64,000 nucleotides of DNA, taken from contig JAKJBR010000006.1 of NCBI GenBank assembly GCA_022706885.1, positions 670-64,669 of the forward strand, in the 5' to 3' direction. The DNA comes from Bacillota bacterium (lineage in GTDB: Bacteria; Bacillota; Clostridia; DUPQ01). The translations under genes and the position numbers were made by a program. How positions within the stretch are numbered: the stretch's first letter is position 1; every line of letters starts with the position of its first letter. The notes under the pieces are model-generated. The model was not told the origin of the DNA. It saw only the letters and a list, made by a program, of their open reading frames with translations, and ran no database searches. This document shows, piece after piece, positions 40,412 to 55,660 of the stretch.

Positions 40412-40486
40412 GTCCCGGTAGTATAATGGATAAAACGGGGGATTCCGGTTCCTCAGATGCGGGTTCGATTCCTGTTCGGGACGCCA
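40412..40486 (+). tRNA. tRNA-Arg (anticodon CCG), with encoded CCA
   Basis: Hand-folded cloverleaf. Acceptor GTCCCGG/TCGGGAC with discriminator G and CCA. T-arm GCGGG-TTCGATT-CCTGT. Anticodon arm GGGGA-TTCCGGT-TCCTC, which gives U33 and CCG at positions 34-36. D-loop AATGGATA carries the GG pair. The D-stem has only 3 of 4 pairs, so the isotype call is tentative. Confidence 0.6.
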
Positions 40487-40531: not shown

Positions 40532-40595
40532 AGGCAATCATCGGACTGTTTTGGAGTGAAAAATGGTCATAAAATTTTGCAAATGTATGCTAAAT

Positions 40596-40605
40596 GCTTG
40601 CAAGC
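40596..40605. promoter_or_regulatory. perfect 10-bp palindrome GCTTGCAAGC upstream of relB (candidate autoregulatory operator)
   Basis: Lies about 50 nt upstream of the relB start, inside a promoter-like region (TTGCAA ... TACTAC). Confidence 0.35.
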
Positions 40606-40657
40606 TGCAAAAATTTGTGACATACTACAACCAGATAAACATAAGGAGGTTTTTCCA

Positions 40658-40963
40658 ATGGCAAATACAGCTACCGTATATGCAAGAATTGATCCCGAAC
40701 TCAAATCGGATGTCGATTCCATTCTTAATAAGCTTGGAGTAACTCCGTCCGCACTTATCCAAATGCTCTATAGCCAAATCAAACTGACAGAAAGCATTCC
40801 GTTTGAGATTAAAATTCCGGCTAAGATTCCGCTTTCACTCGGAAGCATGTCTGTTGAACGGTTGAACACTGAACTTCAGAAAGGAGTTGACTCGGTGAAA
40901 GCCGGTCGTGTACACTCTGCGGATGAGGTTGACGGAATACTGAATAAGGAGTTCGGTATCTGA
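40658..40963 (+). CDS. relB: RelB/DinJ-family antitoxin
   Basis: AAGGAGG ribosome-binding site. N-terminal RHH-like region (ATVYARIDPELKSDVDSILNKLGVTPSALIQML). Followed 2 nt later by a RelE/ParE toxin gene. Confidence 0.7.
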   Translation: MANTATVYARIDPELKSDVDSILNKLGVTPSALIQMLYSQIKLTESIPFEIKIPAKIPLSLGSMSVERLNTELQKGVDSVKAGRVHSADEVDGILNKEFGI

Positions 40964-40965
40964 TA

Positions 40966-41283
40966 GTGAAGTATTCTGTAAACTATTCCGATGAAGCACT
41001 GGACGATCTTCGGGATATTTATAGCTATATATCCGAATCTCTTATGGAACCGACCATTGCTGCCGGACAGGTTAACCGTATCCGTACTGAAATTAAAGCA
41101 CTTGACAGACTGCCGTTTCGTCACAGTGTTGTTGATTGGGAACCATGGCATACAATGGAAATGCGTCACTTTCCGGTAGACAACTTCGTTGTTTTTTATC
41201 TGGTGGAAGATAAAAGCGTAAATGTTGTTCGCATTTTTTACGGCAGACGGGATATTGAATCAATTATAAAGAATTCCAAATAG
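40966..41283 (+). CDS. relE: RelE/ParE-family toxin
   Basis: 105 aa, GTG start. MKYSVNYSDEALDDLRDIYSYI...FRIFYGRRD matches the ParE/RelE fold signature. Confidence 0.7.
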   Translation: MKYSVNYSDEALDDLRDIYSYISESLMEPTIAAGQVNRIRTEIKALDRLPFRHSVVDWEPWHTMEMRHFPVDNFVVFYLVEDKSVNVVRIFYGRRDIESIIKNSK

Positions 41284-41344
41284 GTTATCTGTCTTTCATA
41301 TCGCAGTGCAACTTCGTTTGATAGGAGTCACGATTACGGTTCAT

Positions 41345-41640
41345 TATCGTCCACATCAAAAAGAGATATGCAAACCTGAAGATTCACTATATTAAAAAGA
41401 CTTATATCCTATCGGTATATCGGAAATACGAACACCGCTCGGAAATGTAGTTCAAGTTTATGATGTAGAAAGAAGCATTTGCGACATCGTTCTTGATAGA
41501 GAAAAAGCCGATACACAGTTTTTGTCGGTACACTTTCCGTATATTTCAAAGGAAAAAACAAAGATTTAAGAAAACTTATAAATTACGGCAGACAATTCGG
41601 AATCGAAGAAGAGATACGGCGTTATGTGGCGTTCTTTAAA
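41345..41640 (+). pseudogene. 3'-half fragment of an abiEi-like gene, frameshifted
   Basis: About 93% nucleotide identity to 52105-52400, the 3' half of the intact gene at 51816. It has a 1-nt deletion in an A-run and lacks the 5' half. Confidence 0.55.
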
Positions 41641-41771
41641 TCCGTTCTTGCACAAGTGTAGTGCCAAGTTTTCTTAATATTAGCACAACGCAATCTTTGT
41701 AATGAAAGTTTTCACTTACGGTAAACTATCGTGTATAATTGTATCAGCAAAACAACGACGGATGTGTTGAT

Positions 41772-43436
41772 ATGAGAAAAACAAATATAGTAAAAGCCTT
41801 TATTATCATTGCTCTCGTATTACTTATTATTGTATATACTCCCGCTGTCCTCTGGTGGACAGGCAAGGTTTCTTTACCTGTCTTTTTTACATACATGCGT
41901 ACAGTTATTCATGTCGGTCTTCTCGTCGCATGGGCTATGTCGGTTTACTATCGCATTATTCATAAACAGGTTAGGAGATACCTTATTTCCATAGGCGGTC
42001 TGATGATTTTTTGGTTATTAATTAAAACACTGAAATACTATTTCGTATATGATGTAGATTCGACCCGTATGCTTTGGTATGCCTACTATATTCCGCTGCT
42101 TCTCATTCCCACTATGGGTGTTTTGGTTGCGTTGTCGCTTGGTAAGCCGGAAGATTATCGTCTTCCGAAGTGGACGAACTATTTTTTTATCTGTGCTGTG
42201 ATTTTGGTTTTATTGGTGCTCACAAACGATTTTCACAATTTGGTTTTTATTTTTCCGAAAGGAGAGACGGGGTCAGACAAAAATGCTGCATTCAACATAA
42301 TATTTTTGGTCGTTATGGCGTGGGTGAATCTTGTAGGCACAGTCGCTATTATTCTCATTATTCTCAAGTGTCGCATTCCTAAAAGTCGGGCTGTCTTATG
42401 GTTACCGTTGGTTTCACTGTCGCTCACCATCCTATACGGGATTTTATATTTGATAAAATGGGCACCTGTCAGAGTGTTTCTCAACGACCCGACAGTGACA
42501 ATATGTATGCTCTTTATTGTTGTACTGGAAAGTTGTATCAAGTCCGGCCTTATACAGGCCAATACACTTTACGGTAAGTTGTTTTATGCGTCTTCCATAG
42601 GAATGCAGATTACGGATAGTAATTTTGATGTTCTTTACACTTCGGAAAGTGCAAAGAGTTTTAACATAAAGACTCTGAAAGCTGCTGCCGAAAAACCCGT
42701 CATTCCGAGTATGAGAGAAGGGTTACGTCTTTCCGGAGCACCGATAAAGAGAGGATATGTATTCTGGCAGGAAGATGTGAGTGAACTGCTCGGCGTGTTG
42801 GAGGAGCTTGCGGGAACGGCGGAAGAGTTGGAAAGTTACGGTGAGATTATTCGGGATGAAAACCGACAAAAGGAACGACGCAAAAAATTGGAAGAACGAA
42901 AAAGACTTTTTGTGAGTATGTGTGAACAAATATCTCCACAGGTAGAGTTGCTGACAAGGTATGTGGAAGAATTGGAGGCGACAGAGAACGAAGAAACGGC
43001 CAAATTGATTTTAAGCAGGATTTCGGTAATCGGTGCATATATGAAGCGACGCAGCAACCTTATCTTTTTAGCCGAGCAACCCTGTTCCTGTGCGACAGAG
43101 GAATTGCGTCTATGCCTGAACGAGTCGATGGCAAGCCTCAGGTTTTACGGTGTGGAATGTGCCTGCTTTTTTGATGAACTGATAGATTTTGACTTAACGG
43201 TTGCAACTCTTTTCTATGACTTTTTTGAAGTTGCGGTGGAGATGGCTCTGAATAATCTTTCACAAATGGTGGCGTCTTTTAATTACAAGAACAGCAATGT
43301 CGGTTTCTCGATTATGCTCTGTACGGACAGCGACATGAGCCTTATAACAAAAAAGTTTCCGGACGCCTCCGTAGAGAAAGAGGACGGCATATGGTATTGT
43401 ATGCTGGCTGCCGGGAAAGGAGAGGCTTTCACATGA
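41772..43436 (+). CDS. polytopic membrane protein with degenerate histidine-kinase-like cytoplasmic domain (no conserved His)
   Basis: At least 8 transmembrane segments, then a coiled coil, then a C-terminal region with HisKA_3/HATPase-like spacing but no phospho-acceptor His or G-boxes. The tool's start at 41739 is a TTG inside a TGTATAAT box, so the ATG at 41772 is preferred. Confidence 0.5.
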   Translation: MRKTNIVKAFIIIALVLLIIVYTPAVLWWTGKVSLPVFFTYMRTVIHVGLLVAWAMSVYYRIIHKQVRRYLISIGGLMIFWLLIKTLKYYFVYDVDSTRMLWYAYYIPLLLIPTMGVLVALSLGKPEDYRLPKWTNYFFICAVILVLLVLTNDFHNLVFIFPKGETGSDKNAAFNIIFLVVMAWVNLVGTVAIILIILKCRIPKSRAVLWLPLVSLSLTILYGILYLIKWAPVRVFLNDPTVTICMLFIVVLESCIKSGLIQANTLYGKLFYASSIGMQITDSNFDVLYTSESAKSFNIKTLKAAAEKPVIPSMREGLRLSGAPIKRGYVFWQEDVSELLGVLEELAGTAEELESYGEIIRDENRQKERRKKLEERKRLFVSMCEQISPQVELLTRYVEELEATENEETAKLILSRISVIGAYMKRRSNLIFLAEQPCSCATEELRLCLNESMASLRFYGVECACFFDELIDFDLTVATLFYDFFEVAVEMALNNLSQMVASFNYKNSNVGFSIMLCTDSDMSLITKKFPDASVEKEDGIWYCMLAAGKGEAFT

Positions 43437-44428
43437 AGTACAATATAAAGGGTCGCTCCATCAAGGAAAGTTTTGACAATTTACCTTCAGGCGTATGCTT
43501 TGCCGACAGCAAAGGTATGATTGTATTGTGTAACAGACAAATGCACAGATTATGTTGCATATTGCTCGGAACAGGTTTGCAACACATTTTTGAGCTCAGA
43601 GAGGCATTACAAACACCTACGGATACCGTTACACATGTTGAGGGAACAAATGATACTTTTCGTTTCCCCGACGGTCGGATATGGGAGTTTAGGGAAAGTA
43701 CGGTTACCGTTGTCGGCGGCAAAACATATACGCAGATACAGGCACTTTCTTTGACCGAACTGTATGCCAAAAAAACAGAGCTGGAGCAAAAAAATCGCGA
43801 ATTGGAAGAAGTGAATAAGCGGGCAAGGAAGCTTTATGCGGAGTTGGACAATACCGTTAGAGAGGAAGAAGCTTTTGCAATCAAAATGCGTATTCATAGC
43901 GATATAGGTTTACGGTTGCTTGCCACACATAAGGTGCTCCGTGAAGGCGGACTTACCGAACTTAAGGAAGCCGGGAAAATATGGAGAAGCACCCTTAATG
44001 TTTTCGGTATAGCCGATGCGGTGGCAAGTGATTATACAAATATAGAGAAAAAAACCTCAAGCAGGTCGGAGGAAATGCTCCATAACCTTATTAATTCCGC
44101 CGCAGGGATAGGCTTAAAAATCATTCTTGACGGTAATTTACCTGAGGACCGGGAACAAAGTTACCTTATTACTACCGCTATGAGGGAATGTGCCACCAAT
44201 ACGGTACGTCATGCCGGCGGTAATGAAATGAAAGTAAGGATATTTGAAGTAAAAAGCACACTTGTTGTATGGATTGAAAATAACGGAAAGCCGCCCGAGA
44301 GGAAAGTTGTAGAGGGCGGAGGTTTGTCCGATTTAAGAAAGCGTATAGAAAAGGCGGGCGGTACTATGAGAATAAAGAGCAGTCCTACATACAGATTGAC
44401 AGTGATTTTGCCCGGAAAGGAGAAATAA
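43433..44428 (+). CDS. cytoplasmic sensor histidine kinase (HisKA_3 / NarL-partner type)
   Basis: H-box MRIHSDIGLRL, N-box ECATNTVRHAGGNEM, and G-boxes ENNGKP...EGGGLSDLRKRIEKAGG. GGAGAGG ribosome-binding site. The start overlaps the upstream stop. Confidence 0.75.
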   Translation: MKYNIKGRSIKESFDNLPSGVCFADSKGMIVLCNRQMHRLCCILLGTGLQHIFELREALQTPTDTVTHVEGTNDTFRFPDGRIWEFRESTVTVVGGKTYTQIQALSLTELYAKKTELEQKNRELEEVNKRARKLYAELDNTVREEEAFAIKMRIHSDIGLRLLATHKVLREGGLTELKEAGKIWRSTLNVFGIADAVASDYTNIEKKTSSRSEEMLHNLINSAAGIGLKIILDGNLPEDREQSYLITTAMRECATNTVRHAGGNEMKVRIFEVKSTLVVWIENNGKPPERKVVEGGGLSDLRKRIEKAGGTMRIKSSPTYRLTVILPGKEK

Positions 44429-44431
44429 TCC

Positions 44432-45055
44432 ATGGTTAATGTACTTATTGTGGAAGATAAAATAATGCCTCGCGATTGCATGGAAGGCTATATCAAAAGC
44501 AGTGACCGCTATAGTCTTGTAGCCTCTATAACCAATGCGGGAATGGCGGAAATGACATGCATGTGTTATCCTGTCGACCTTATACTTATGGATGTTTGTA
44601 CCGAGAACAACGAAAGCGGCATTAAGGCCTGTTCCGTTATAAAGCGATACTTTCCCGATATTAAAGTTATTATAGTGACTTCCATGGCCGATTCAAGCTT
44701 TATAACCAAAGCAAGGGAAGCAAATGCGGACAGTTTTTGGTATAAGGAAGTAAGTGAAAATGAATTATTGGATATTATGGATCGTACAATGAGCGGCGAA
44801 TCGGTATGGCCGGATAAAGTACCCGAAGTACAGATCGGCAAAGCAAGCTCCTGCGAGTTTACTCAACGAGAGATGGAGGTACTTCGACTGATTGTAAGAG
44901 GTCTGACCGATGCCGCTATTGCGGAGGAGTTGTATATAAGTATAACCACAGTACGTACACATATAAGGGAGTTGCTCAAAAAATCAGGCTATAGCAACCG
45001 TGTAAGGCTTGCCTGTGATGTGATAAACAAAGATTTGATTGTCGAAGGATTTTAG
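44432..45055 (+). CDS. LuxR/NarL-family response regulator (REC + HTH)
   Basis: Receiver domain with the acceptor Asp in DLILMDV. C-terminal LuxR HTH (REMEVLRLIVRGLTDAAIAEELYISITTVRTHIRELLKKSG). Confidence 0.8.
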   Translation: MVNVLIVEDKIMPRDCMEGYIKSSDRYSLVASITNAGMAEMTCMCYPVDLILMDVCTENNESGIKACSVIKRYFPDIKVIIVTSMADSSFITKAREANADSFWYKEVSENELLDIMDRTMSGESVWPDKVPEVQIGKASSCEFTQREMEVLRLIVRGLTDAAIAEELYISITTVRTHIRELLKKSGYSNRVRLACDVINKDLIVEGF

Positions 45056-45214
45056 AAAATATATTATATCTATTCCGCACCGTTTTTCCGTACTACGGCT
45101 TCTTTTGTTGCAAAAATCATCATTTATGACGATATGTTTTTTATGCCCTTTTCCCTATAATTTAAAGTGACAAGGTGCTGTATATCACCTACTTAAGAAA
45201 AGGAAGGTGGCAGG

Positions 45215-45601
45215 GTGCGTCAAATTATTTTGAGCATGAAAGACTATATCTTTGCAGATGCTGTCGCACAGGCATTGCTGAATGAAAAGGGCAGTGATTT
45301 TGCCGTGCAAAAAACAAAAAGTCCGGAAGAAATACAAAAGTATTGCAAGATTACTTCTCCATATGCTCTGCTCATGGAAGTGACGGGATATCCGCCTTTT
45401 GCACTGTCGGAAAGGCTTGCTTTACGGGAGCAAGTAAAGAAACAAAATCCGAACTGCAAGATTGTTATTCTTGTGGACGAGAACTCGGAGAAAGAGATTG
45501 CAGCGCAGGTAAGACAGGCAAAAAAGGACGGTCTTATAGACCAGTTTATCTACGGTTCCACAAGTGCAAGCTACCTTGTGGCGATGATGGACACCTTGTA
45601 G
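45215..45601 (+). CDS. stand-alone receiver-like domain protein with Glu at the phospho-acceptor position (pseudo-receiver)
   Basis: CheY-like alternation of beta-strands and helices, but beta3 reads ALLMEVTG (E instead of D), the DD pair is KD, and the conserved Lys is not evident. Confidence 0.4.
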   Translation: MRQIILSMKDYIFADAVAQALLNEKGSDFAVQKTKSPEEIQKYCKITSPYALLMEVTGYPPFALSERLALREQVKKQNPNCKIVILVDENSEKEIAAQVRQAKKDGLIDQFIYGSTSASYLVAMMDTL

Positions 45602-45641
45602 ACAACAAAAAGGAAAATACATATATGAAGGAGAAAGCGAA

Positions 45642-48600
45642 ATGAAAGTAAAAAGGAAATTATTATCTGTTTTTTTGGTAATATCCATGTTGGCAGGGAT
45701 TCTGCCCTTAACCGCTCTGCCGGTATATGCGGCCAATCCGCCGGCGACAGATGTATCAGTATATACTACGGAAGGTAATCAAACTCTCGACTCCATGTAT
45801 CCGTACCTGGTTAACGGGAAGAAGGCAAAAACGGGTACTTTGGGAAGTGGCGGATGTACCGCCTATTTTGACCATACTACCGGTATCTTGACACTGCAGA
45901 ATCATAGCGGAGGTAATATAGTGAAAGGTTCTTTAGGGGGTAAAAAGGATTTGACCGTTAAGTTGGTCGGTACTAATGCTCTTACATCCGCTTTGCAAAA
46001 CATATCGGGCGGGGACCTCATAATCACGGCAGAGGATACCGCCACTCTTTCGATTACTAACAACACAGACACTAACGGTGTTATAACAGGCATAAGTACC
46101 GATATTACGGGAGTTAACGCCGGACCCGGAAGTATAACAATTAGAGGAAAAGCAAATATATCCATATACGTAGAAAACATAAGTACAGGTGTAGAATCCG
46201 GGGTCCGAGGTATCTTTGCTAAACAGGATATATCTATCCTTGATAATGCATCGGTGAATATTGAATGTATAGGCAAAGGGACGGGTTCCTACCCGGTATC
46301 AGGAATTCAAAGTACAAATAAAAGTGTAACATTCAACACAACGGGAAAAGTAAATATCGACTGTTCGGATGCACAGAACAAAAATCCATATGCTATTAAC
46401 AATATGCTAGCAAATATTTTAACCTCTGTCGATGAACTTACTCTAAAATGGACGAACGGAGGTCGTGGATATAGTTTAGTTGATGGTGGTATGTCATATG
46501 ATGTCACATCTTTTACCCGCAACATCAAAGAAGCTACACCAACCCAGCCCGGAATAGAGGTCTTCAAGAAAGGAACACCTCTTACTTTAACGATAGAAAA
46601 CGGCAAAAACAATTTCGGCAAAAAGGAAGGGCAATTTACCCACGGAGAAACAGTAAATGTTACGGCCAATTCCATTACCGGTCTGACATTTAAAAAGTGG
46701 GTAGCCACAGCCGGTATAATCGGATGTGCCACAGATTCTTCCACCACTTTAACCATGCCCGATGAGAATGTAACGCTTACGGCAATATATGATGTTTTTG
46801 CCGTACAACCTAAATCCGCCTATGTAAGCGCTACATCGAGAAAAGTCACTTTTTCTTTAAAGGCAACTCCTACTACTTATGCTCCCCGTTTAGTTACCGA
46901 ATCCGGAGATTATAACGACATAGTCGGGGAGACAACTTTCGGTCATGATGGCGCATTAAACTATTCAGAAGTTATTCGTTGTATTGGAATATTCGATGTT
47001 CCGAACGGCAATTACCGTATTGCCGCCAAATTTGACGATGTATGGTATTATAGCGATGTTTTCACGGTAGATTATAGTACCCATAGCATAACCGTTGACG
47101 GAGATGCGGTTGAGACTACCGACTACACAATAACGGGTGTAAGTGACTTCAGTTCTATACCGGACGGTACAAACCTGACAATCAATGCAGTTAATGATAT
47201 TAATGTTGACGGAGAGAATGTAGTCGCCGGCAGCTCAAAGACTATAGTTATCAATTCGTCCTATACCATAACCATTAATAAAAAGGTGAGCAATAGTGCA
47301 CCTACGGTAGTTGTAGGAAAGGAAACGCAAACCGGAAATGCAACTCCGAAGGCAAGTAGCGGTATTCCTGCAGCGATTGCGTATGAGGCGGATATGTCGG
47401 GATGGTTTAATGATGCTGACGGTGACGCTTTGACTTACTCGGTAGTATCGGCAAGGGAAGGCACAAATGATGTTTCCGCTCATGTGAGTGTTGCGGGAAA
47501 GCACATCACCTATACACCTGCTGCCGCACAAGCGGGTAAAAATGTAATTATAAAGATAAAAGCAAATGACGGACTTGCAGACAGTACGGATAATGTAACA
47601 ATAACCGTAACTGTAGAGGAAGTGCCTGCAGATGCGAAGATATATAAGGTAACTGTTGCCGGAGATGCTGCCGAGACTACCGACTACACAATATCGGGAG
47701 CAACCGACTTGAATGCGGTGCCGGACGGAACGAATCTGACAATCTATGCGGTTAATAACATTACCGTTAACGGTGAAATTGTGACTTGCGGAAACTCCAA
47801 AAATATAACTATCAATTCAGCTCAAACAATAACCATTAACAAAAAGGTGGGCAATAGTGCACCTACGGTAGTTGCAGGAAAGGAAGCACAAACCGGAAAT
47901 GCAACACCTGAGGCTAACTGCGGTCATCCTGAAGCAGTAATGTATGAGGCGGATATGTCGGGATGGTTTAATGATGTTGACGGTGATGTATTGACTTACT
48001 CGGTAGTATCTGCAACGGAAGGCACAAATGATGTTTCCGCTCATGTGAGTGTTGCAGGAAAGCACATCACCTATATACCTGCTGCCGCACAAGCGGGTAA
48101 AAATGTAATTATAAAGATAAAAGCAAATGACGGACTTGCAGACAGTACAGGTGATGTAACAATTACAGTGAGTGTAGCGGCGGTTCCGGCGGATACAACC
48201 TACAAAGTAACCATATACGGAAATGCCGTTATAACAACCGACTATACGGTATCGGTAGCCGACTTGAATGCGGTACCGCACGGAACTGATTTAATAATCT
48301 ATGCGGTTAATGATATTACCGTTAGTGGCGAGGATGTGGCGGCAGGCGGCTCTAAGACTATAGCATCAATCGTTTCACCCTGTGGCATTGAAGTTAAAAA
48401 GAAAAATAACGCACCTACGGTAGTTGCAGGAAAGGAAACGCAAACCGGAAATGCAACACCTGAGGCTAACTGCGGTCATCCTGAAGCAGTAAGGTATGAG
48501 GCGGATATGTCGGGATGGTTTAATGATGTTGACGGTGACACTTTGACTTACTCGGTAGTATCTGCAACGGAAGGCACAAATGATGTTTCCGCTCATGTGA

Positions 48601-51434
48601 GTGTTGCGGGAAAGCACATCACCTATACACCTGCTGCCGCACAAGCGGGTAAAAATGTAATTATAAAGATAAAAGCAAATGACGGACTTGCAGACAGTAC
48701 AGGTAATGTAACAATTACAGTGAGTGTAGCGGCAGTACCGGCGGATACAACTTATGTGGTAACCGTTAACGGAGATGCAGTTATAACAACCGACTATACG
48801 GTATCGATAGCCGACTTGAATGCGGTACCGCACGGAACTGATTTGATAATCTATGCGGTTAATGATATTACCGTTGACGGTGCGGTTGTGGTTGCAGGTG
48901 GCTCTAAGACAATAGCATCAATCATTTCACCCTACAATATAACCGTTAACAAAAAGACCGGTAATAACGCACCCACGGTAGTTGTCGGAAAGGAAACGCA
49001 AACCGGAAATGCAACACCTAAGGCTAACTGCGGTCATCCTGAAGCAGTAAGGTATGAGGCGGATATGTCGGGATGGTTTAATGATGTTGACGGTGATGTA
49101 TTGACTTACTCGTTAGTATCTGCAACGGAAGGTACAAATGATGTTTCCGGTGATGTATATATTTTAGGAGCAGATATCCGCTATACTCCTGCTGCGACAC
49201 AGGCCGGCAAGGATGTGATTATCGTAGTTAAAGCAAATGACGGATCTGCAGACAGTACAGGTAATGTAACAATTACAGTGAGTGTAGCGGCGGTTCCTGC
49301 GGATACAACCTATAAAGTAACCATGTACGGAGATGCCGTTATAACAACCGACTATACGGTATCGGTAGCCGACTTGAATGCGGTACCGCACGGAACTAAT
49401 CTGACAATCAATGCAGTTAACAATATTATCGTTGACGGCGAGAGTGTAGCGGCAGGCGGCTCAAAAGTTATTACAATCAATTCATCTCAAACAATAACGG
49501 TTAACAAGGTAGCTATACCCAAACACACGGTAACCTATGATGTAGACGGCGGCAGTTTAGCAGCGCCTACTCAGGACGATGTGGCGGAAGGTGCTACTTT
49601 TGCAGTTGCTTCATATGCAGGTACAAAAGCCGGATTTACATTCGGAGGCTGGAACGACGGTAGCAGTGATTATGTGGCCGGTGCCGTTTACACAATGGGA
49701 ACGCTAAACGTAACCTTGACGGCGGTATGGAATGTAGCGTCGATAGCCGTAACCGGAGTAAAATTGGATTCTTCAACATTAACTTTAACGGCAGGCGGTT
49801 CAGCCGGAACATTAACTGCAACGGTATTACCTATGGATGCCGCAAACAAGAACATAACATGGGCATCAAGTGATACTTCGACAGCAACCGTATCAAACGG
49901 TGTAGTAACTCCTGTAGCAGCGGGAACGGCGACTATTACCGTTACAACGGAAGACGGCGGTAAAACAGCTACTTGTACGGTAAAAGTAGTTCCTGCAAAA
50001 CCTACGGGACTTGTTGCAATAAAACCTACTACGGCAGGCGGTACCGACGGTATGATTACCGGCACAAGTGCAATTATGGAATATGCAAACAATGTTTCCT
50101 TTACAGGTGCCGTTAATTGTATCGGTACAAAGATTACGAACCTTTCGGCAGGAACATATTATGTAAGAGTAAAGGCAACCGTAGCACACGATGCCGGAGA
50201 GGCGACCACGGTTGTAGTTCCCGCATTTGTTGCTATTGAGGAAGAGGACGAGGACATTTATATTCCCGTTACCGCTTCCACTATTCCGGCAAATAACGGT
50301 GCGGTCAACATAGGATATATTGAATCCGAAGGTGTGGTATCATTGGATTTAACCGACGATAAGATAGAGGAGATTATTAAGAAGAGCAGTAAAGGGAATG
50401 TGGACTTTAATGTTTCCGGAATTGAAAATGCTACATCGGTTGAAATACCCAAAGAGGCATTTGCAGCATTCGGTAAAGCGGATATGTCTGTAACTGTAAA
50501 ACTGCCCGACGGAAGCATTACTCTTGATAAAGAAGCCGTTGATTCGGTTTCCGAACAGGCTGAAGGAGATTCGGTAAATATTGAACTATCAGTAATTGAA
50601 GCTAAAGAGTTGAACCATCTTCAGGAGCAATCGGTAAAAGCGGACGATATAGTTGTTGATATCAACATTAGCGACGGAAAAGGCAATTTGATTAAGACCT
50701 TTGACGGAGAACTGACAATACAGATTCCTTACAAGGGAACTTTACCGGTAACGGTCTGGTACTTAAATAATGCCGGTCAGTTGGAGAAAATAGAAGCAAC
50801 TTACAAAGAAGGAATCGTTACGTTCAAACTCAATCACCTTTCAGTATATGTACTGGGACAAGATAAAGACAGAACAAAAGATTGGGATAATCCTTTTACC
50901 GATGTAAATGAAAAGGATTGGTACTATGATTCAGTGAAGTTCGCACATATGAACAAACTGATGTACGGTGTTGGCTACAAGCAGTTTGACCCCCACGGTT
51001 CTATACCTCGCGGACTGTTGCTTACCGTACTGCATCGTTTGGAGAAAACGCCCGAACCGAAAGGATATGGCGCATTCAAAGATGTAGCGGCAAACAAATA
51101 TTACAGTAAAGCTGTCAACTGGGCTGCCGAGAATAATATTGTAACCGGTTACGGAGACGGAAACTTTGGCCCCAATGACCTTATTACAAGAGAACATTTG
51201 GCATTAATCCTTATGAACTATGCCAAGTACAAAGGTTTTGACACATCAAAAAAGGCGGATTTAGAAATATTTGCCGACTCAAAGAGTATTTCCATTTGGG
51301 CAAAAGAGGCTATGGCATGGGTTGTTGCCGAAGATATCTATGTAGGTGACCAAGCCAATCTGAATCCTGCCGGTAACGCCACACGTTGCCAAGTAGCGGC
51401 AATATTCAAGCGTTTCATTGAAAACGTAGAGTAA
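45642..51434 (+). CDS. giant SLH-anchored surface adhesin (cadherin-like repeats, Listeria-Bacteroides repeat, Big_2, FN3-like, 3 x SLH)
   Basis: Signal peptide MKVKRKLLSVFLVISMLAGILPLTALPVYA, followed by beta-rich domains. Four ~187-aa repeats carry DxDGD(A/V)LTYS cadherin-like motifs. A Listeria-Bacteroides (flg_new) repeat GGWNDGSSDYVAGAVY is present. A Big_2 domain reads VTGVKLDSSTLTL...ATITVTTEDGGKTATCTVKV. The C-terminus has three S-layer-homology domains (FTDVNEKDWYYDSV..., FKDVAANKYYSKAV..., ...). Confidence 0.85.
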   Translation: MKVKRKLLSVFLVISMLAGILPLTALPVYAANPPATDVSVYTTEGNQTLDSMYPYLVNGKKAKTGTLGSGGCTAYFDHTTGILTLQNHSGGNIVKGSLGGKKDLTVKLVGTNALTSALQNISGGDLIITAEDTATLSITNNTDTNGVITGISTDITGVNAGPGSITIRGKANISIYVENISTGVESGVRGIFAKQDISILDNASVNIECIGKGTGSYPVSGIQSTNKSVTFNTTGKVNIDCSDAQNKNPYAINNMLANILTSVDELTLKWTNGGRGYSLVDGGMSYDVTSFTRNIKEATPTQPGIEVFKKGTPLTLTIENGKNNFGKKEGQFTHGETVNVTANSITGLTFKKWVATAGIIGCATDSSTTLTMPDENVTLTAIYDVFAVQPKSAYVSATSRKVTFSLKATPTTYAPRLVTESGDYNDIVGETTFGHDGALNYSEVIRCIGIFDVPNGNYRIAAKFDDVWYYSDVFTVDYSTHSITVDGDAVETTDYTITGVSDFSSIPDGTNLTINAVNDINVDGENVVAGSSKTIVINSSYTITINKKVSNSAPTVVVGKETQTGNATPKASSGIPAAIAYEADMSGWFNDADGDALTYSVVSAREGTNDVSAHVSVAGKHITYTPAAAQAGKNVIIKIKANDGLADSTDNVTITVTVEEVPADAKIYKVTVAGDAAETTDYTISGATDLNAVPDGTNLTIYAVNNITVNGEIVTCGNSKNITINSAQTITINKKVGNSAPTVVAGKEAQTGNATPEANCGHPEAVMYEADMSGWFNDVDGDVLTYSVVSATEGTNDVSAHVSVAGKHITYIPAAAQAGKNVIIKIKANDGLADSTGDVTITVSVAAVPADTTYKVTIYGNAVITTDYTVSVADLNAVPHGTDLIIYAVNDITVSGEDVAAGGSKTIASIVSPCGIEVKKKNNAPTVVAGKETQTGNATPEANCGHPEAVRYEADMSGWFNDVDGDTLTYSVVSATEGTNDVSAHVSVAGKHITYTPAAAQAGKNVIIKIKANDGLADSTGNVTITVSVAAVPADTTYVVTVNGDAVITTDYTVSIADLNAVPHGTDLIIYAVNDITVDGAVVVAGGSKTIASIISPYNITVNKKTGNNAPTVVVGKETQTGNATPKANCGHPEAVRYEADMSGWFNDVDGDVLTYSLVSATEGTNDVSGDVYILGADIRYTPAATQAGKDVIIVVKANDGSADSTGNVTITVSVAAVPADTTYKVTMYGDAVITTDYTVSVADLNAVPHGTNLTINAVNNIIVDGESVAAGGSKVITINSSQTITVNKVAIPKHTVTYDVDGGSLAAPTQDDVAEGATFAVASYAGTKAGFTFGGWNDGSSDYVAGAVYTMGTLNVTLTAVWNVASIAVTGVKLDSSTLTLTAGGSAGTLTATVLPMDAANKNITWASSDTSTATVSNGVVTPVAAGTATITVTTEDGGKTATCTVKVVPAKPTGLVAIKPTTAGGTDGMITGTSAIMEYANNVSFTGAVNCIGTKITNLSAGTYYVRVKATVAHDAGEATTVVVPAFVAIEEEDEDIYIPVTASTIPANNGAVNIGYIESEGVVSLDLTDDKIEEIIKKSSKGNVDFNVSGIENATSVEIPKEAFAAFGKADMSVTVKLPDGSITLDKEAVDSVSEQAEGDSVNIELSVIEAKELNHLQEQSVKADDIVVDINISDGKGNLIKTFDGELTIQIPYKGTLPVTVWYLNNAGQLEKIEATYKEGIVTFKLNHLSVYVLGQDKDRTKDWDNPFTDVNEKDWYYDSVKFAHMNKLMYGVGYKQFDPHGSIPRGLLLTVLHRLEKTPEPKGYGAFKDVAANKYYSKAVNWAAENNIVTGYGDGNFGPNDLITREHLALILMNYAKYKGFDTSKKADLEIFADSKSISIWAKEAMAWVVAEDIYVGDQANLNPAGNATRCQVAAIFKRFIENVE
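47283..49506 (+). repeat. in-frame tandem repeat, 4 x 561 bp (about 187 aa per unit), high nucleotide identity
   Basis: Units start near 47283, 47844, 48400 and 48951. Long stretches are identical between units, for example GGATATGTCGGGATGGTTTAATGATGTTGACGGTGA. Confidence 0.85.
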
Positions 51435-51483
51435 AGAGGCAGTATGCAGTTATGCATTAATACAATTCAATAGTTTAACAATC

Positions 51484-51521
51484 GGTACCATGCTTTCCTT
51501 GAAGGTATGGTACCTTTTATT
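51484..51521 (+). terminator. intrinsic terminator after the adhesin gene
   Basis: GGTACCAT ... ATGGTACC 8-bp stem followed by TTTTATT. Confidence 0.5.
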
Positions 51522-51618
51522 GTGTACCTGGCATGGCACAGTTCTAACGGGTGAAAGTCCCTTTACAGGTATCTATCGCCAAGTGTAGTGAACCACAAGC
51601 TGGAAGAAGTAATGCCGG

Positions 51619-51718
51619 GGTGAAAGCCGGTCGTGTACACTCTGCGGATGAGGTTGACGGAATACTGAATAAGGAGTTCGGTATCTGATGGAGAAGTATT
51701 CTGTAAACTACTCCGATG
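51619..51718 (+). pseudogene. 100-bp remnant of the relB 3' end plus relE 5' end
   Basis: About 95% identical to 40894-40993. It encodes only an 18-aa RelE stub (MEKYSVNYSDV...). Confidence 0.5.
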
Positions 51719-51815
51719 TAATAAACTCTACTTATTATTTCTAAGCAATTCGACATTTAGCACTTTACAGATTCGCTTTAATTATGCATAATCTAAAGCG
51801 AAAGTGTAGGAAGAT

Positions 51816-52406
51816 ATGATAGCGTTAAAAGAGTACTTTAAAGAAAATCCTGTCATTACGAATAGGGATGCCGATAATATCGGGATAGGAAGACATGTTC
51901 TATCCGATTTGGCAAGTCAAGGAAAAATTGAAAGAATAAGACCGGGAGTATATCAAAAATCCGGTGAGATTTTAGATGATTTTGTTCTGATATCGTCCAA
52001 TAGAGATAGAGTTGTTTTTTCACACCAATCAGCCCTATATTTACATGATTTATCTGATCGTGTTCCGAACATCTTTAATATATCCGTACCTCAAGGATAC
52101 AATGCAAGCCACATCAAAAAGGGATATGCAAACCTGAAGATTCACTATATTAAAAAAGACTTATATCCTATCGGTATATCTGAAATACGAACACCGCTCG
52201 GAAATGTAGTTCAAGTTTATGATGTAGAAAGAAGCATTTGCGACATCATAGTTGATAGGGAAAAAATCGATGCGCAGATTTTTGTCGGTGCACTTTCCTC
52301 ATATTTCAAAGGAAAAAACAAGGATTTAAGAAAACTTATAAAATACGGCAGACAATTCGGGATCGAAGAAGAGATACGGCGTTATGTGGCGTTCTTTCGT
52401 GATTAA
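51816..52406 (+). CDS. AbiEi-like (type IV toxin-antitoxin / abortive-infection antitoxin) wHTH protein
   Basis: 196 aa. N-terminal wHTH-like region (ITNRDADNIGIGRHVLSDLASQGKIERIRPGVYQ) and the family-typical C-terminal extension. No AbiEii nucleotidyltransferase gene is adjacent. Confidence 0.55.
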   Translation: MIALKEYFKENPVITNRDADNIGIGRHVLSDLASQGKIERIRPGVYQKSGEILDDFVLISSNRDRVVFSHQSALYLHDLSDRVPNIFNISVPQGYNASHIKKGYANLKIHYIKKDLYPIGISEIRTPLGNVVQVYDVERSICDIIVDREKIDAQIFVGALSSYFKGKNKDLRKLIKYGRQFGIEEEIRRYVAFFRD

Positions 52407-52669
52407 CATAGAGAGTATAAAAGGGAAAATAAGAAACTTATATTATAAGAACGGCTACACACAGAGAAAGTTTGAATAAACAAAAAGAGATTGAAAAAAT
52501 ATTACGGGATATAGAAAACGATGACGTTTTGTCTTATAAGATAACGAAATCCGCCTTGCTTAAGCGTTGTGTCAATTATCTTGATATTAACGTAACGTAA
52601 TCGATTGTTTTAATTGCATATTAAGACAACTTTATATGTGTTATAATTATCCTATCGTCAGGAGGGAAA

Positions 52670-52900
52670 ATGATTAAGCAGATAGAATCAAAGGAACTGG
52701 AGTTTGCTATATTTTGCATAGAAAACACAGCTGTGCATCTTGGCATTAAAGGGAGTGTTCTGTACAAGAAGCTTACCGAGGAAAGCGACATTCTTTATGA
52801 TTACATAATACCGCTGTATGATGCTCTTCATACTCAGAGTAAAGAATATATCGTGGATGATATCTTGAGGGTTATGGAGAAGAGAGGTATTGCGGCATGA
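52670..52900 (+). CDS. DUF3791-like small protein
   Basis: 76 aa, helical. Overlaps the downstream gene by 4 nt. Confidence 0.5.
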   Translation: MIKQIESKELEFAIFCIENTAVHLGIKGSVLYKKLTEESDILYDYIIPLYDALHTQSKEYIVDDILRVMEKRGIAA

Positions 52901-53367
52901 AACTATATCACGCTTCAAATGTAGAGGTTTCAAAACCTGACTTGGTTCATTCCAGAAAGAACCTTGACTTCGGTGTCGGTTTCTATACTACACCGATTTA
53001 TGAACAAGCTCTAAGTTGGGCAAACAGGTTTCGAAAGACTGAAGGTTATGCAGTTATTTCAGAGTATGTCTTTGACAAAACAGCTTATCAAACTTTAAGT
53101 ATACTTAAATTTGACGCCTATTCGGAAGATTGGCTGAATTTTATAATAAGCTGTCGTACAGGAAAAGACAACACAACTTATGATATCGTAATTGGCGGAA
53201 TAGCAAATGATAAGGTTTTTAACACAATTGAGCTTTATCTTGACAATCTGATTGATAGAAAAGAAGCAATTAAGCGACTTAAGTACGAAAGGCCTAATTC
53301 CCAATATTGTTTCAGGACGGAAAAAGCACTTGCTTATTTAAGTTTTGAAAGGAGCAACTGTTTATGA
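52897..53367 (+). CDS. DUF3990-like protein (GFY motif)
   Basis: 156 aa. MKLYHAS...DFGVGFYTTP matches the recalled conserved GFY signature of DUF3990. Confidence 0.5.
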   Translation: MKLYHASNVEVSKPDLVHSRKNLDFGVGFYTTPIYEQALSWANRFRKTEGYAVISEYVFDKTAYQTLSILKFDAYSEDWLNFIISCRTGKDNTTYDIVIGGIANDKVFNTIELYLDNLIDRKEAIKRLKYERPNSQYCFRTEKALAYLSFERSNCL

Positions 53368-53597
53368 AGGCTCACCCTATTTTGCTACAAAAGAAATATG
53401 CAAGGATTGTGGAACAGTTTGCAAAAAAACAGGGTATAGAAATTAGCACTGCTCTTGATTTTTTCTACGGTTCCATGGTGTATGTTTTGATGAGCGAAGG
53501 AATATCGGATTTTCACTGCATGTCGGATACATATATAGTTGATGAACTTATTATTGAGTATTCAAAAGCTTTGAAAAAGAATCAATTAGATAAGTGA
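53364..53597 (+). CDS. DUF3791-like small protein (second copy)
   Basis: 77 aa, paralogous in pattern to the 52670 gene. Overlaps the upstream gene by 4 nt. Confidence 0.5.
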   Translation: MKAHPILLQKKYARIVEQFAKKQGIEISTALDFFYGSMVYVLMSEGISDFHCMSDTYIVDELIIEYSKALKKNQLDK

Positions 53598-54791
53598 TAC
53601 GGGAATTTTCCAAATTTTCTCTTTAACAGGACTTAATGTATTTGTATGACATATCACTCCGTAATAGGGGATACGAAAATCTTCTTGAGCTAAAACGGAG
53701 AAATTCTTTTCTGCATGAGAGGGATTATCGCTTAATTTAATTTCAAACGGATACAGTTTTCCTCCCATTTCAATGAGTAAATCTATTTCTCTTTGGTTAC
53801 TGTCGCGGTAATAATACATTTGCGGGCTTATGCCGTTATGTCGATAAGACTTGTATATTTCCGAAACTATCCAACTTTCAAAAAGATTTCCTTTTAGCGG
53901 ATTCATATCAAAAGCCTCGACTGTCCTGATAGAACACAGGTAAGCAGCCAGTCCGACATCACAGAAATGAATTTTGGGCCGTTTAATGATTCTCTTTCCC
54001 AAATTTCGGCTATATGCAGGCAGCTCGATTACCAGACCGCTTGTTAAGAGAACATCCAGCCACCTTCTCACCGTACTGCTGTCAACACCTAAATCTTTTC
54101 CGATACTTGCCAAGTTTAATTCCTGTGCGGTACATATTGCAAGCAACGTCATAAAATGCAGGAACTGACCGGTATCCAAAACATTGGTAATTTCTCTCAC
54201 GTCACGTGCGATATAACTGTCAATGTATGACTGATAGTAACCTGCAACATCAATATTCTTTTGGAAAAGAACTCTTGGCATGGAACCTTGTATAATAGTT
54301 TTTGCAACAGAAAAAGACAAGATATCTTCCCGCATCATGTCGGACAAATCACGGGGAAAAGGATTATGCTCCTGCTCTTTGTATTCTTTTACGGAAAATC
54401 CGTCTAATTGCAAAATTCTGACTCTTCCCGCCAACGACTCCTGCACCCCGCGCATCAGAGGATAAACTTGCGAGCCGGTAAGCCAAAAGAGATTGTTCTC
54501 ATTACGGGCATCTATAATCATTTTTATATACGGAAAAAGTTCGGGAGCATATTGAATCTCATCAATCAGAAGAGGAGTTTTAAAGCGTTCGAAAAACAAT
54601 TCGGGATTGAATCGTGCCAGGTTTCTCAAAGCTGGATCATCAAGACTTACATATGTCCTTTCGTCTTCTTTCAAATGCAGCAAAAGCGTGCTTTTACCTA
54701 CTTGTCTTGGCCCCGTAAGCAAAAGTGCAGGATAATATTGTGTTTGCTGTTTAAAATACTCTTCAATTTGACGTCTGCGATAAGTAATCAT
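53586..54791 (-). CDS. AAA+ ATPase (AAA_14 + DUF4143 / COG1373 family)
   Basis: Walker A LLTGPRQVGKST and Walker B LLIDEIQY. C-terminal DUF4143-like region. The preferred start is the ATG at 54791 after GAGAGG; the tool's longer ORF runs into an upstream hydrophobic low-complexity stretch. Confidence 0.7.
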   Translation of the reverse strand: MITYRRRQIEEYFKQQTQYYPALLLTGPRQVGKSTLLLHLKEDERTYVSLDDPALRNLARFNPELFFERFKTPLLIDEIQYAPELFPYIKMIIDARNENNLFWLTGSQVYPLMRGVQESLAGRVRILQLDGFSVKEYKEQEHNPFPRDLSDMMREDILSFSVAKTIIQGSMPRVLFQKNIDVAGYYQSYIDSYIARDVREITNVLDTGQFLHFMTLLAICTAQELNLASIGKDLGVDSSTVRRWLDVLLTSGLVIELPAYSRNLGKRIIKRPKIHFCDVGLAAYLCSIRTVEAFDMNPLKGNLFESWIVSEIYKSYRHNGISPQMYYYRDSNQREIDLLIEMGGKLYPFEIKLSDNPSHAEKNFSVLAQEDFRIPYYGVICHTNTLSPVKEKIWKIPVSLI

Positions 54792-54978
54792 TTTGATATA
54801 CCTCTCTATAATTAAGATTATTATACTAAACATATTCATGAAAATCAAGGATTCAATCCCTGAAAAACGGGGATGCAATCCTTGAAAAGCATAAATTCCT
54901 GTTAAAGACAGGAACTTTATCCAAACATAAGTGAGGTATTTTTTGCGTAAATTTGTGCGGCAAATTGCTAAAACCCTC

Positions 54979-55660
<682 letters not shown>

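Follow-up and report, generated by a model that had tools for sequence, protein, structure and literature searches.

Within a 64,000-nt stretch of DNA from an uncultured Clostridia species (Bacillota; NCBI GenBank assembly GCA_022706885.1, contig JAKJBR010000006.1, positions 670 to 64,669; hereafter, the window), pieces of toxin-antitoxin genes stand on both sides of a five-gene operon that encodes signal transduction proteins and a large surface protein (Table 1). The left set of pieces (copy 1) contains intact relB antitoxin and RelE/ParE-type toxin genes, followed by a frameshifted 3' half of abiEi, as judged with Pfam and tblastn. The right set (copy 2) contains a 100-bp remnant of the relB 3' end and relE 5' end, followed by an intact abiEi, as judged with Pfam and alignment. 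Both gene contents agree with an original prediction made from the sequence alone, which had regarded the two sets as reciprocally decayed duplicates of a relBE-abiEi module. The window is identical to GCA_002070835.1 ('Firmicutes bacterium ADurb.Bin099'), a metagenome-assembled genome from an anaerobic digester.

Repeats were searched for by pairwise BLASTN, self-BLASTN of the whole window and a repeat finder, and the flanks were probed by local alignment in comparison with random window segments. Two repeated segments were found, which are collinear and in direct orientation. Segment 1 is identical at 97 of 100 positions without gaps (E 5e-42 in the whole-window self-search), and segment 2 is 93.8% identical over 289 columns (E 2e-121 in the same search), with 16 substitutions and two 1-nt deletions, both of the latter in copy 1. 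The predicted identity of 93-95% therefore held for segment 2 but was too low for segment 1. Perfectly identical runs reach 71 bp in segment 1 and 66 bp in segment 2. Neither segment is of low complexity, both being coding-type sequence, and in the pairwise alignment the similarity was not restricted to short low-complexity stretches. No further copies were detected within the window by BLASTN or tblastn. The homology stops abruptly at the left end of segment 1, with none to its left (P 0.42), and none was detected between segments 1 and 2 (357 bp in copy 1 against 390 bp in copy 2; P 0.30).

A third, more diverged segment follows segment 2. Segment 3 is 76% identical between the copies, with a local score of 42 against a null maximum of 26-29 (26 in 5,712 random window segments). 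In copy 1, this match opens on the first base past the end of segment 2, and the boundary 41637|41638 is therefore an internal deletion joint of copy 1, at which 149 bp of copy 2 are absent. An earlier reading of this boundary as the joint with the operon, with a CGTTCTT repeat as possible microhomology, was rejected once segment 3 was found; the joint with the operon is 41695|41696. Segment 3 and the abiEii remnant to which it belongs indicate that the repeated unit runs from about relB codon 79, via relE/parE and abiEi, to the abiEii stop. The original prediction, which placed the repeats within 40894-52406, was right about two collinear direct repeats and missed segment 3 and the abiEii remnant, so that its right end should be moved to ~52602. 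The notion of a single relBE-abiEi module had to be abandoned, because relBE and abiE are two adjacent systems and the unit includes abiEii as well. The ancestral unit would have been about 1.3-2 kb in size, of which 445 bp are still shared.

Table 1. Features of the repeat copies, the bracketed operon and the flanks (window coordinates), with the junctions predicted for recombination between the repeats.
Feature	Position	Strand	Basis and remarks
tRNA-Arg(CCG)	40412..40486	+	ARAGORN; Rfam tRNA 49.6 bits; 171 bp upstream of relB, left edge of toxin-antitoxin islet
relB/dinJ antitoxin, intact, 101 aa	40658..40963	+	Pfam RelB PF04221, 43.3 bits (cut-off 22.4)
Segment 1, copy 1	40894..40993	+	Functional relB 3' end (70 nt), 2-nt spacer, relE 5' end (28 nt)
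RelE/ParE-superfamily toxin, intact, 105 aa	40966..41283	+	Pfam ParE_toxin PF05016, 41.2 bits (cut-off 23)
67-bp spacer between relE and abiEi fragment	41284..41350	+	Copy 1 only; identity to copy 2 at chance level in register
Segment 2, copy 1: abiEi pseudogene fragment, codons 98-194	41351..41637	+	93.8% identical to 52109-52397
Segment 3, copy 1: abiEii 3' end remnant	41638..41695	+	44/58 identical to 52547-52602
Bracketed cassette, 9,923 bp	41696..51618	+	Between segment 3 copy 1 and segment 1 copy 2
Promoter-like site of kinase gene	41711-41739		Promoter scan
Seven-transmembrane (7TM) histidine kinase	41772-43436	+	Pfam
331-aa kinase-like protein	43433-44428	+	Pfam
LuxR-type response regulator	44432-45055	+	Pfam
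128-aa protein	45215-45601	+	No Pfam match
Flg_new/Big_2/SLH surface protein, 1,930 aa	45642-51434	+	Pfam
Terminator	51484-51514		Terminator scan; followed by 104 bp up to 51618
Segment 1, copy 2, non-functional	51619..51718	+	relB 3' end 51619-51688 (last 70 nt), relE 5' end 51691-51718 (first 28 nt)
abiEi promoter TTTACA-17-CATAAT	51764..51792	+	Promoter scan
15-nt inverted repeat TACAGATTCGCTTTA-N13-TAAAGCGAAAGTGTA	51766-51808	+	87% complementary; spans abiEi -10 box
abiEi, intact, 196 aa	51816..52406	+	Pfam AbiEi_4 PF13338, 34.9 bits (cut-off 25), residues 5-47
Segment 2, copy 2: functional abiEi 3' half	52109..52397	+	Holds 53-bp high-divergence patch 52248-52300
abiEii (nucleotidyltransferase toxin) remnant	52399..52600	+	tblastn with AbiEii from L030/L031
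Segment 3, copy 2	52547-52602	+	Aligned with 41638-41695
DUF3791-DUF3990-DUF3791-like triad, unique right flank	52670..53597	+	Pfam; outside the repeat; adjoins abiEi in all contigs examined
Predicted junction, deletion through segment 1			AAAGGAGTTGACTC + segment 1 + TAATAAACTCTAC
Predicted junction, deletion through segment 2			GGTTCATTATCGT + segment 2 + CGTGATTAACATAG
Predicted circle or tandem junction			AGTAATGCCGG + segment 1 + AAGCACTGGACG, or segment 3 followed by the cassette again

In copy 1, the relB product scores above the RelB/DinJ threshold of NCBIfam (TIGR02384, 50.1 bits; cut-off 45.65), and an operator-like inverted repeat is located upstream of the gene at 40566-40621. The toxin gene, co-oriented with relB, starts with GTG 2 nt past the relB stop. 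Its product is listed in public sources as ParE1/3/4, as 'plasmid stabilization system protein' or as RelE/ParE family. The name relE is provisional, because the product falls just below the cut-off of NCBIfam RelE_StbE (TIGR02385, 26.0 bits against 27.9), and RelE/ParE superfamily would be the safe label. The spacer between the toxin gene and the abiEi fragment may be what remains of the sequence that ancestrally separated relE from abiEi; its similarity to the abiEi upstream region and 5' half is at chance level, and local alignment was not significant. The abiEi fragment has neither a start codon nor a promoter, and its two 1-nt frameshifts distribute it over three reading frames (tblastn). 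In the strain contigs L012 and L013 it also contains an in-frame TGA. The genes called on public contigs include neither of the two toxin-antitoxin remnants nor the abiEii remnant, and in searches of the junction regions for structured RNAs or riboswitches, Rfam matched the tRNA only. In relB itself, the differences between L012 and the window are tightly clustered in the 5' part (40666-40729), with ACC changed to GTT at 40673-40675 and further differences at 40726-40729. This clustering points to changes of several nucleotides at once or to recombination with a diverged allele, not to single point mutations.

In copy 2, the start codon of the relE remnant is changed from GTG to GAG, and segment 1 is identical across all strains examined. 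A 45-aa open reading frame (51551-51688) that ends with the C-terminal 22 residues of RelB was considered as a mini-antitoxin and rejected, since no Shine-Dalgarno-like sequence was seen by eye upstream of its GTG. The AbiEi protein is 60-76% identical to annotated AbiEi-family proteins of ~195 aa across Firmicutes. Its gene shows four synonymous and three non-synonymous changes between strains, which, in such small numbers, are compatible with purifying selection. AbiEi of S. agalactiae binds GCTTTTA/TAAAAGC inverted repeats (PMC3985639), and the core of the 15-nt inverted repeat upstream of abiEi resembles these repeats; by analogy, this element is likely the AbiEi operator. In strains of the P0001 clade, a C to T change at 51787, inside this inverted repeat, turns the abiEi -10 box CATAAT into the consensus TATAAT.

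In abiE operons, the first codon of abiEii overlaps the stop codon of abiEi (Dy et al., 2014; PMC3985639). Here, a GTG at 52399 preserves this overlap and is followed by what is left of abiEii. Fourteen N-terminal codons (VINIESIKGKIRNL) remain; after codon 14, an internal deletion and a frame change lead to residues ~207-239, about 55 C-terminal codons, and a stop at 52600. The nucleotidyltransferase core is deleted, and no intact AbiEii gene (DUF1814/PF08843) overlaps the abiEi stop. The remnant evolves ~2-fold faster than abiEi between strains. Because only this remnant is left while the relatives have AbiEii, the locus is a decayed AbiE locus with an orphan AbiEi regulator/antitoxin, not a working AbiE defence system.

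The bracketed cassette is an independent, self-contained unit. Outside the species, the closest kinase (P0154, 58% identity) heads an equivalent five-gene operon in another taxon (L063-L065), in which the 331-aa protein, the LuxR-type regulator and the 128-aa protein are 67%, 78% and 82% identical to their counterparts in the window. The surface protein of that operon (SLH/Flg_new) has only the SLH anchor in common with the window protein. Its genomic context is unrelated to the window locus and has no traces of relB, relE or abiEi.

We compared the pieces with their relatives elsewhere. Among 5.8 billion proteins searched with the AbiEi and toxin sequences, the next-best relatives outside the species cluster show 76% (AbiEi) and 63% (toxin) amino-acid identity. 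The best toxin relative in GTDB representative genomes is 60% identical, and a relB partner is always present there. A same-strand abiE gene stands beside relBE in 0 of 13 relBE loci of other species, and the closest AbiEi relatives adjoin AbiEii (PF08843), often fragmented, and not relBE. The nearest known relative of each remnant is its partner copy by a wide margin (94-97% nucleotide identity). Since relBE-abiE adjacency was seen in no other genome examined, the relE-abiEi adjacency is lineage-specific and both copies come from one ancestor. Nearest relatives, adjacency and the independent operon together bear out the predicted footprint of a duplication or recombination, with a signalling/adhesin block between reciprocally decayed copies.

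To sample the population, exact-protein look-ups were performed in ENA, JGI and NCBI contigs with AbiEi, the toxin, RelB, a variant AbiEi, DUF3990 and the product of a 411-aa left-flank gene as anchors. In each of four look-ups, 23-24 contigs were examined (RelB 23, toxin 24), in addition to 13 for the variant AbiEi and four for the 411-aa gene. Layout and breakpoints were the same in all of them, and the same two copies with the same fixed differences were present in the independent ENA, JGI and NCBI assemblies checked. Logan contigs that carry these genes (411-aa look-up) stop short of the repeats. No deletion, amplification or empty-site variant was found among the contigs examined, although consensus assemblies would miss rare subpopulations. 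In particular, variants lacking 41.7-51.6 kb, which the original prediction had envisaged, were absent from the strain contigs examined.

The divergence between the two copies is mosaic. Differences were found at 0 of 70 positions in the relB part of segment 1 (3 of 100 in segment 1 overall), at 5 of 236 in segment 2 outside a 53-bp patch, at 11 of 53 within this patch (52248-52300), and at 12 of 56, plus two gaps, in segment 3. The concentration of 11 of the 16 segment 2 substitutions within 53 bp is unlikely to arise by chance (permutation P ~3e-4), and segment 3 is far more diverged than segments 1 and 2 (Fisher P 1e-4 to 1e-6). Divergence between strains is 1.2-2.6%, the two most distant strains differing by ~2.6% in the neutral abiEii remnant.

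Strain variation was then compared between the copies. Both copies are represented in the window strain and ERZ941555 only (L012 and L048 are two stretches of one ERZ941555 contig). At positions 52355 and 52368, the derived G and A are present in both ERZ941555 copies, in contrast to A and G in both copies of the window strain and in the outgroups; the change at 52368 is E185K in AbiEi. A hand estimate from site counts gave a chance of ~1e-3 for two identical parallel changes. At three further sites, including the in-frame TGA, copy 1 of the window has the copy-2 state where the copy-1 alleles of L012 and L013 share another state. This pattern suggests a conversion tract from copy 2 to copy 1, with inter-strain recombination as the alternative. 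Copy 1 bears most of the derived changes at conserved residues and has eight variable sites (three strains), compared with four in copy 2 (two strains). One of the two copy-1 frameshifts is missing from L012, and therefore the decay of copy 1 is still continuing.

Judging from this mosaic divergence and from the strain co-variation at two sites common to both copies, the copies evidently exchange sequence by gene conversion, because a freely drifting pseudogene would diverge everywhere as in the patch and segment 3. We infer the tracts and their direction from the same patterns. The idea that the repeats could serve as a recombination substrate was supported indirectly, by this exchange and by the long identical runs, but not with regard to deletion or amplification of the operon. 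A third, divergent abiEi paralog was considered as the donor of the 53-bp patch and is not supported: no AbiEi of 76-98% identity is in the protein database searched, and the copy-1 patch residues match no homolog better.

These results suggest that a lineage-specific toxin-antitoxin islet next to tRNA-Arg likely underwent one duplicative rearrangement, of which the locus is the scar and which was followed by complementary deletions and conversion. The ancestral order would have been tRNA-Arg, relB, relE/parE, abiEi, abiEii and then DUF3791 onward. The left junction of copy 1 is native, because it is located inside the intact relB, and the right junction of copy 2, where the abiEii stop is followed by the DUF3791 promoter and gene, looks native as well. 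The novel junctions are 41695|41696 and 51618|51619, both with the operon. With native outer junctions and novel operon junctions, the topology is A-R-C-R'-B, that is, one islet in which R is duplicated and C lies at the joint; the stretch from about relB codon 79 to the abiEii stop is present as two direct copies, with the operon between. We infer the order of events and the origin of the duplication from this arrangement. The duplication could have arisen when a circle that bore both R and C was integrated by a single crossover, or R could have been duplicated in tandem, with the operon entering as a templated insertion at the joint.

After the duplication, deletions in copy 1 would have taken away the promoter and 5' half of abiEi and left very little of abiEii. 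In copy 2, which would never have held the relB 5' part or promoter, the body of relE would have been lost and abiEii deleted internally. These deletions may have removed redundant or harmful parts: on the right, a promoter-less toxin copy, and on the left, a second abiEi promoter and 5' half together with abiEii. In this scenario, relBE would have survived in working form only on the left and abiEi only on the right, the latter autoregulated but deprived of its toxin, next to three remnants that no longer code. Each remnant would still pair with its functional partner. Conversion would hold segments 1 and 2 largely at 97-98% identity, and the parts that escaped it would have drifted to 76-79%.

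Several points weigh against a single duplication. The ancestral order is a reconstruction: neither an intact relB-relE-abiEi-abiEii arrangement nor an empty site was found in GTDB representatives, in the searches of 5.8 billion proteins or around the closest AbiEi relatives. A duplication would have to have occurred with no recombinase, attachment-site (att) repeat or terminal inverted repeat found at the locus; none of the genes called from the tRNA to the pyr genes has a recombinase domain, and no significant direct repeat of the tRNA-Arg 3' end was detected downstream. The evidence for conversion comes from few sites and, apart from the window strain, from a single strain contig with both copies; the patch of 53 bp was delimited after the data had been seen, segment 3 is only 58 bp long, and inter-strain recombination could account for part of the incongruence of the copy-1 alleles. 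The divergence of 21-24% in segment 3 and the patch, far above that between strains, would also fit two related, already diverged relBE-abiE islands that arrived in separate events, perhaps inserted in tandem near tRNA-Arg, and were then joined by deletion and later homogenised in segments 1 and 2 by conversion. The adjacent tRNA gene and the variability of the locus, whose right flank differs between strain clades, are consistent with such a history. It is nevertheless unlikely: relB, not an integrase gene, abuts the tRNA, neither an integrase nor an att repeat was found, and the databases hold no source of a second island, the next relatives being at most 76% and 63% identical and relBE standing beside abiE nowhere else. 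Separate acquisition also needs conversion to the same degree and adds an event that explains nothing further.

The toxin-antitoxin/DUF3791 stretch has a lower G+C content than the operon (0.35-0.40 vs 0.41-0.46), and toxin-antitoxin genes are often mobile, as would be expected if the operon were resident and the toxin-antitoxin pieces had been inserted on each side as independent mobile cassettes. We consider this very improbable, because copy 2 starts in the middle of relB and copy 1 has no abiEi 5' half, so that neither is an insertable functional unit; independent insertions would not recreate the order, orientation and lineage-specific relE-abiEi adjacency; and the presence of the operon in an unrelated context in a related taxon indicates that it is the operon that changes location. 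The direct orientation of the repeats, their identical runs and the exchange of sequence between them would also suit a functional RecA-dependent on/off or copy-number switch that deletes or amplifies a 10.7-kb unit with the surface-protein operon. Either deletion product should be tolerated, with relB or a dead abiEii remaining and no toxin unleashed. However, none of the six look-ups yielded a deletion or amplification product, within the stated limit of consensus assemblies, and a switch as the explanation of the locus is highly unlikely. A more speculative extension is likewise very improbable: the remnants might owe their high identity to a role as conversion partners, through which the active relBE and abiEi are repaired or diversified, or the repeats might let the surface-protein operon be excised or amplified at low frequency, as a RecA-dependent switch in digester populations. 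Chance, low complexity or an assembly artefact can practically be dismissed in view of the E-values within the window, the coding-type sequence and the recurrence of the same copies and fixed differences in independent ENA, JGI and NCBI assemblies. A single duplication followed by complementary loss and conversion thus remains our preferred explanation.

Further features of the operon and of its surroundings were observed. The 128-aa protein is the best-conserved cassette product (82% to the other taxon vs 58% for the kinase) and is a candidate for a specific accessory factor of the signalling unit, as judged by conservation. The operon of the other taxon ends 63 bp from a tRNA-Leu(GAG) gene (L063, 16906-16990, minus strand), and 1.2 kb separate that of the window from tRNA-Arg; variable regions beside tRNA genes may be a preferred site of the operon. 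The surface-protein gene contains four to five tandem repeats of about 552-561 bp with 76-96% identity (window 47089-49507; repeat finder and self-BLAST). Its product has 1,744 aa in ERZ941555, 1,930 aa in most strains and 1,989 + 316 aa (split) in L050, and this length variation is repeat copy-number variation in a cell-surface protein. At window ~55000, the ATPase gene of the window strain is followed by uracil phosphoribosyltransferase, permease and pyr genes; the clade with the AbiEi variant P0001 (L048-L053) has in their place a giant surface protein of the SLH/Flg_new/LRR type (>3,122 aa in L051). The interval as a whole is a variable surface-protein locus. The DUF3791/DUF3990/DUF3791-like genes to the right of the abiE remnant have overlapping stop and start codons and are followed by a convergent AAA_14/DUF4143 ATPase gene (53586-54995, minus strand), which is called as 401 or 469 aa depending on the assembly. 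Located directly after the remnant, this group looks like a further small toxin-antitoxin- or defence-like module. To the left, a DUF2207 membrane-protein gene (34793-37255) carries an internal tandem duplication of ~580 bp with 79% identity (34887-35466 vs 35475-36055; self-BLAST).

The locus is a clean, small example of how a chromosome gains an operon while the duplicated toxin-antitoxin genes are pruned to one working copy of each useful gene. The repeats are also potential points of mis-assembly and recombination around a variable surface-protein gene. This is a well-known kind of genome evolution and reveals no new mechanism.

In comparison with known systems, the locus resembles Campbell-type integration and tRNA-linked islands in that inserted DNA lies between direct duplications of a chromosomal segment with a tRNA gene adjacent; unlike them, it showed no integrase, no att-site repeat and no genes of plasmid or phage origin, its duplicated segment lies within toxin-antitoxin genes, and the circle is hypothetical. 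Type IV AbiE systems (PMC3985639) share with copy 2 the N-terminal AbiEi_4 winged helix, a promoter within ~50 bp of the start with an inverted repeat across it and the abiEii/abiEi overlap, whereas here the toxin gene is a ~200-bp remnant and a second, promoter-less abiEi 3' half is located 10.8 kb upstream. The intact pair of copy 1 is an ordinary type II RelBE/ParDE system, with a RelB/DinJ gene that ends 2 nt before a RelE/ParE toxin gene and follows an operator-like inverted repeat; the second copy here is a 100-bp stub. Segmental duplication, reciprocal loss and concerted evolution by gene conversion are known for bacterial paralogs such as tuf and rrn and for pseudogene/gene pairs. The locus shares with these examples the direct repeats around intervening DNA, complementary retention, mosaic identity and strain variants common to both copies, and it is distinguished from them by the very small size of the unit, its toxin-antitoxin genes and the complete foreign operon exactly at the joint.

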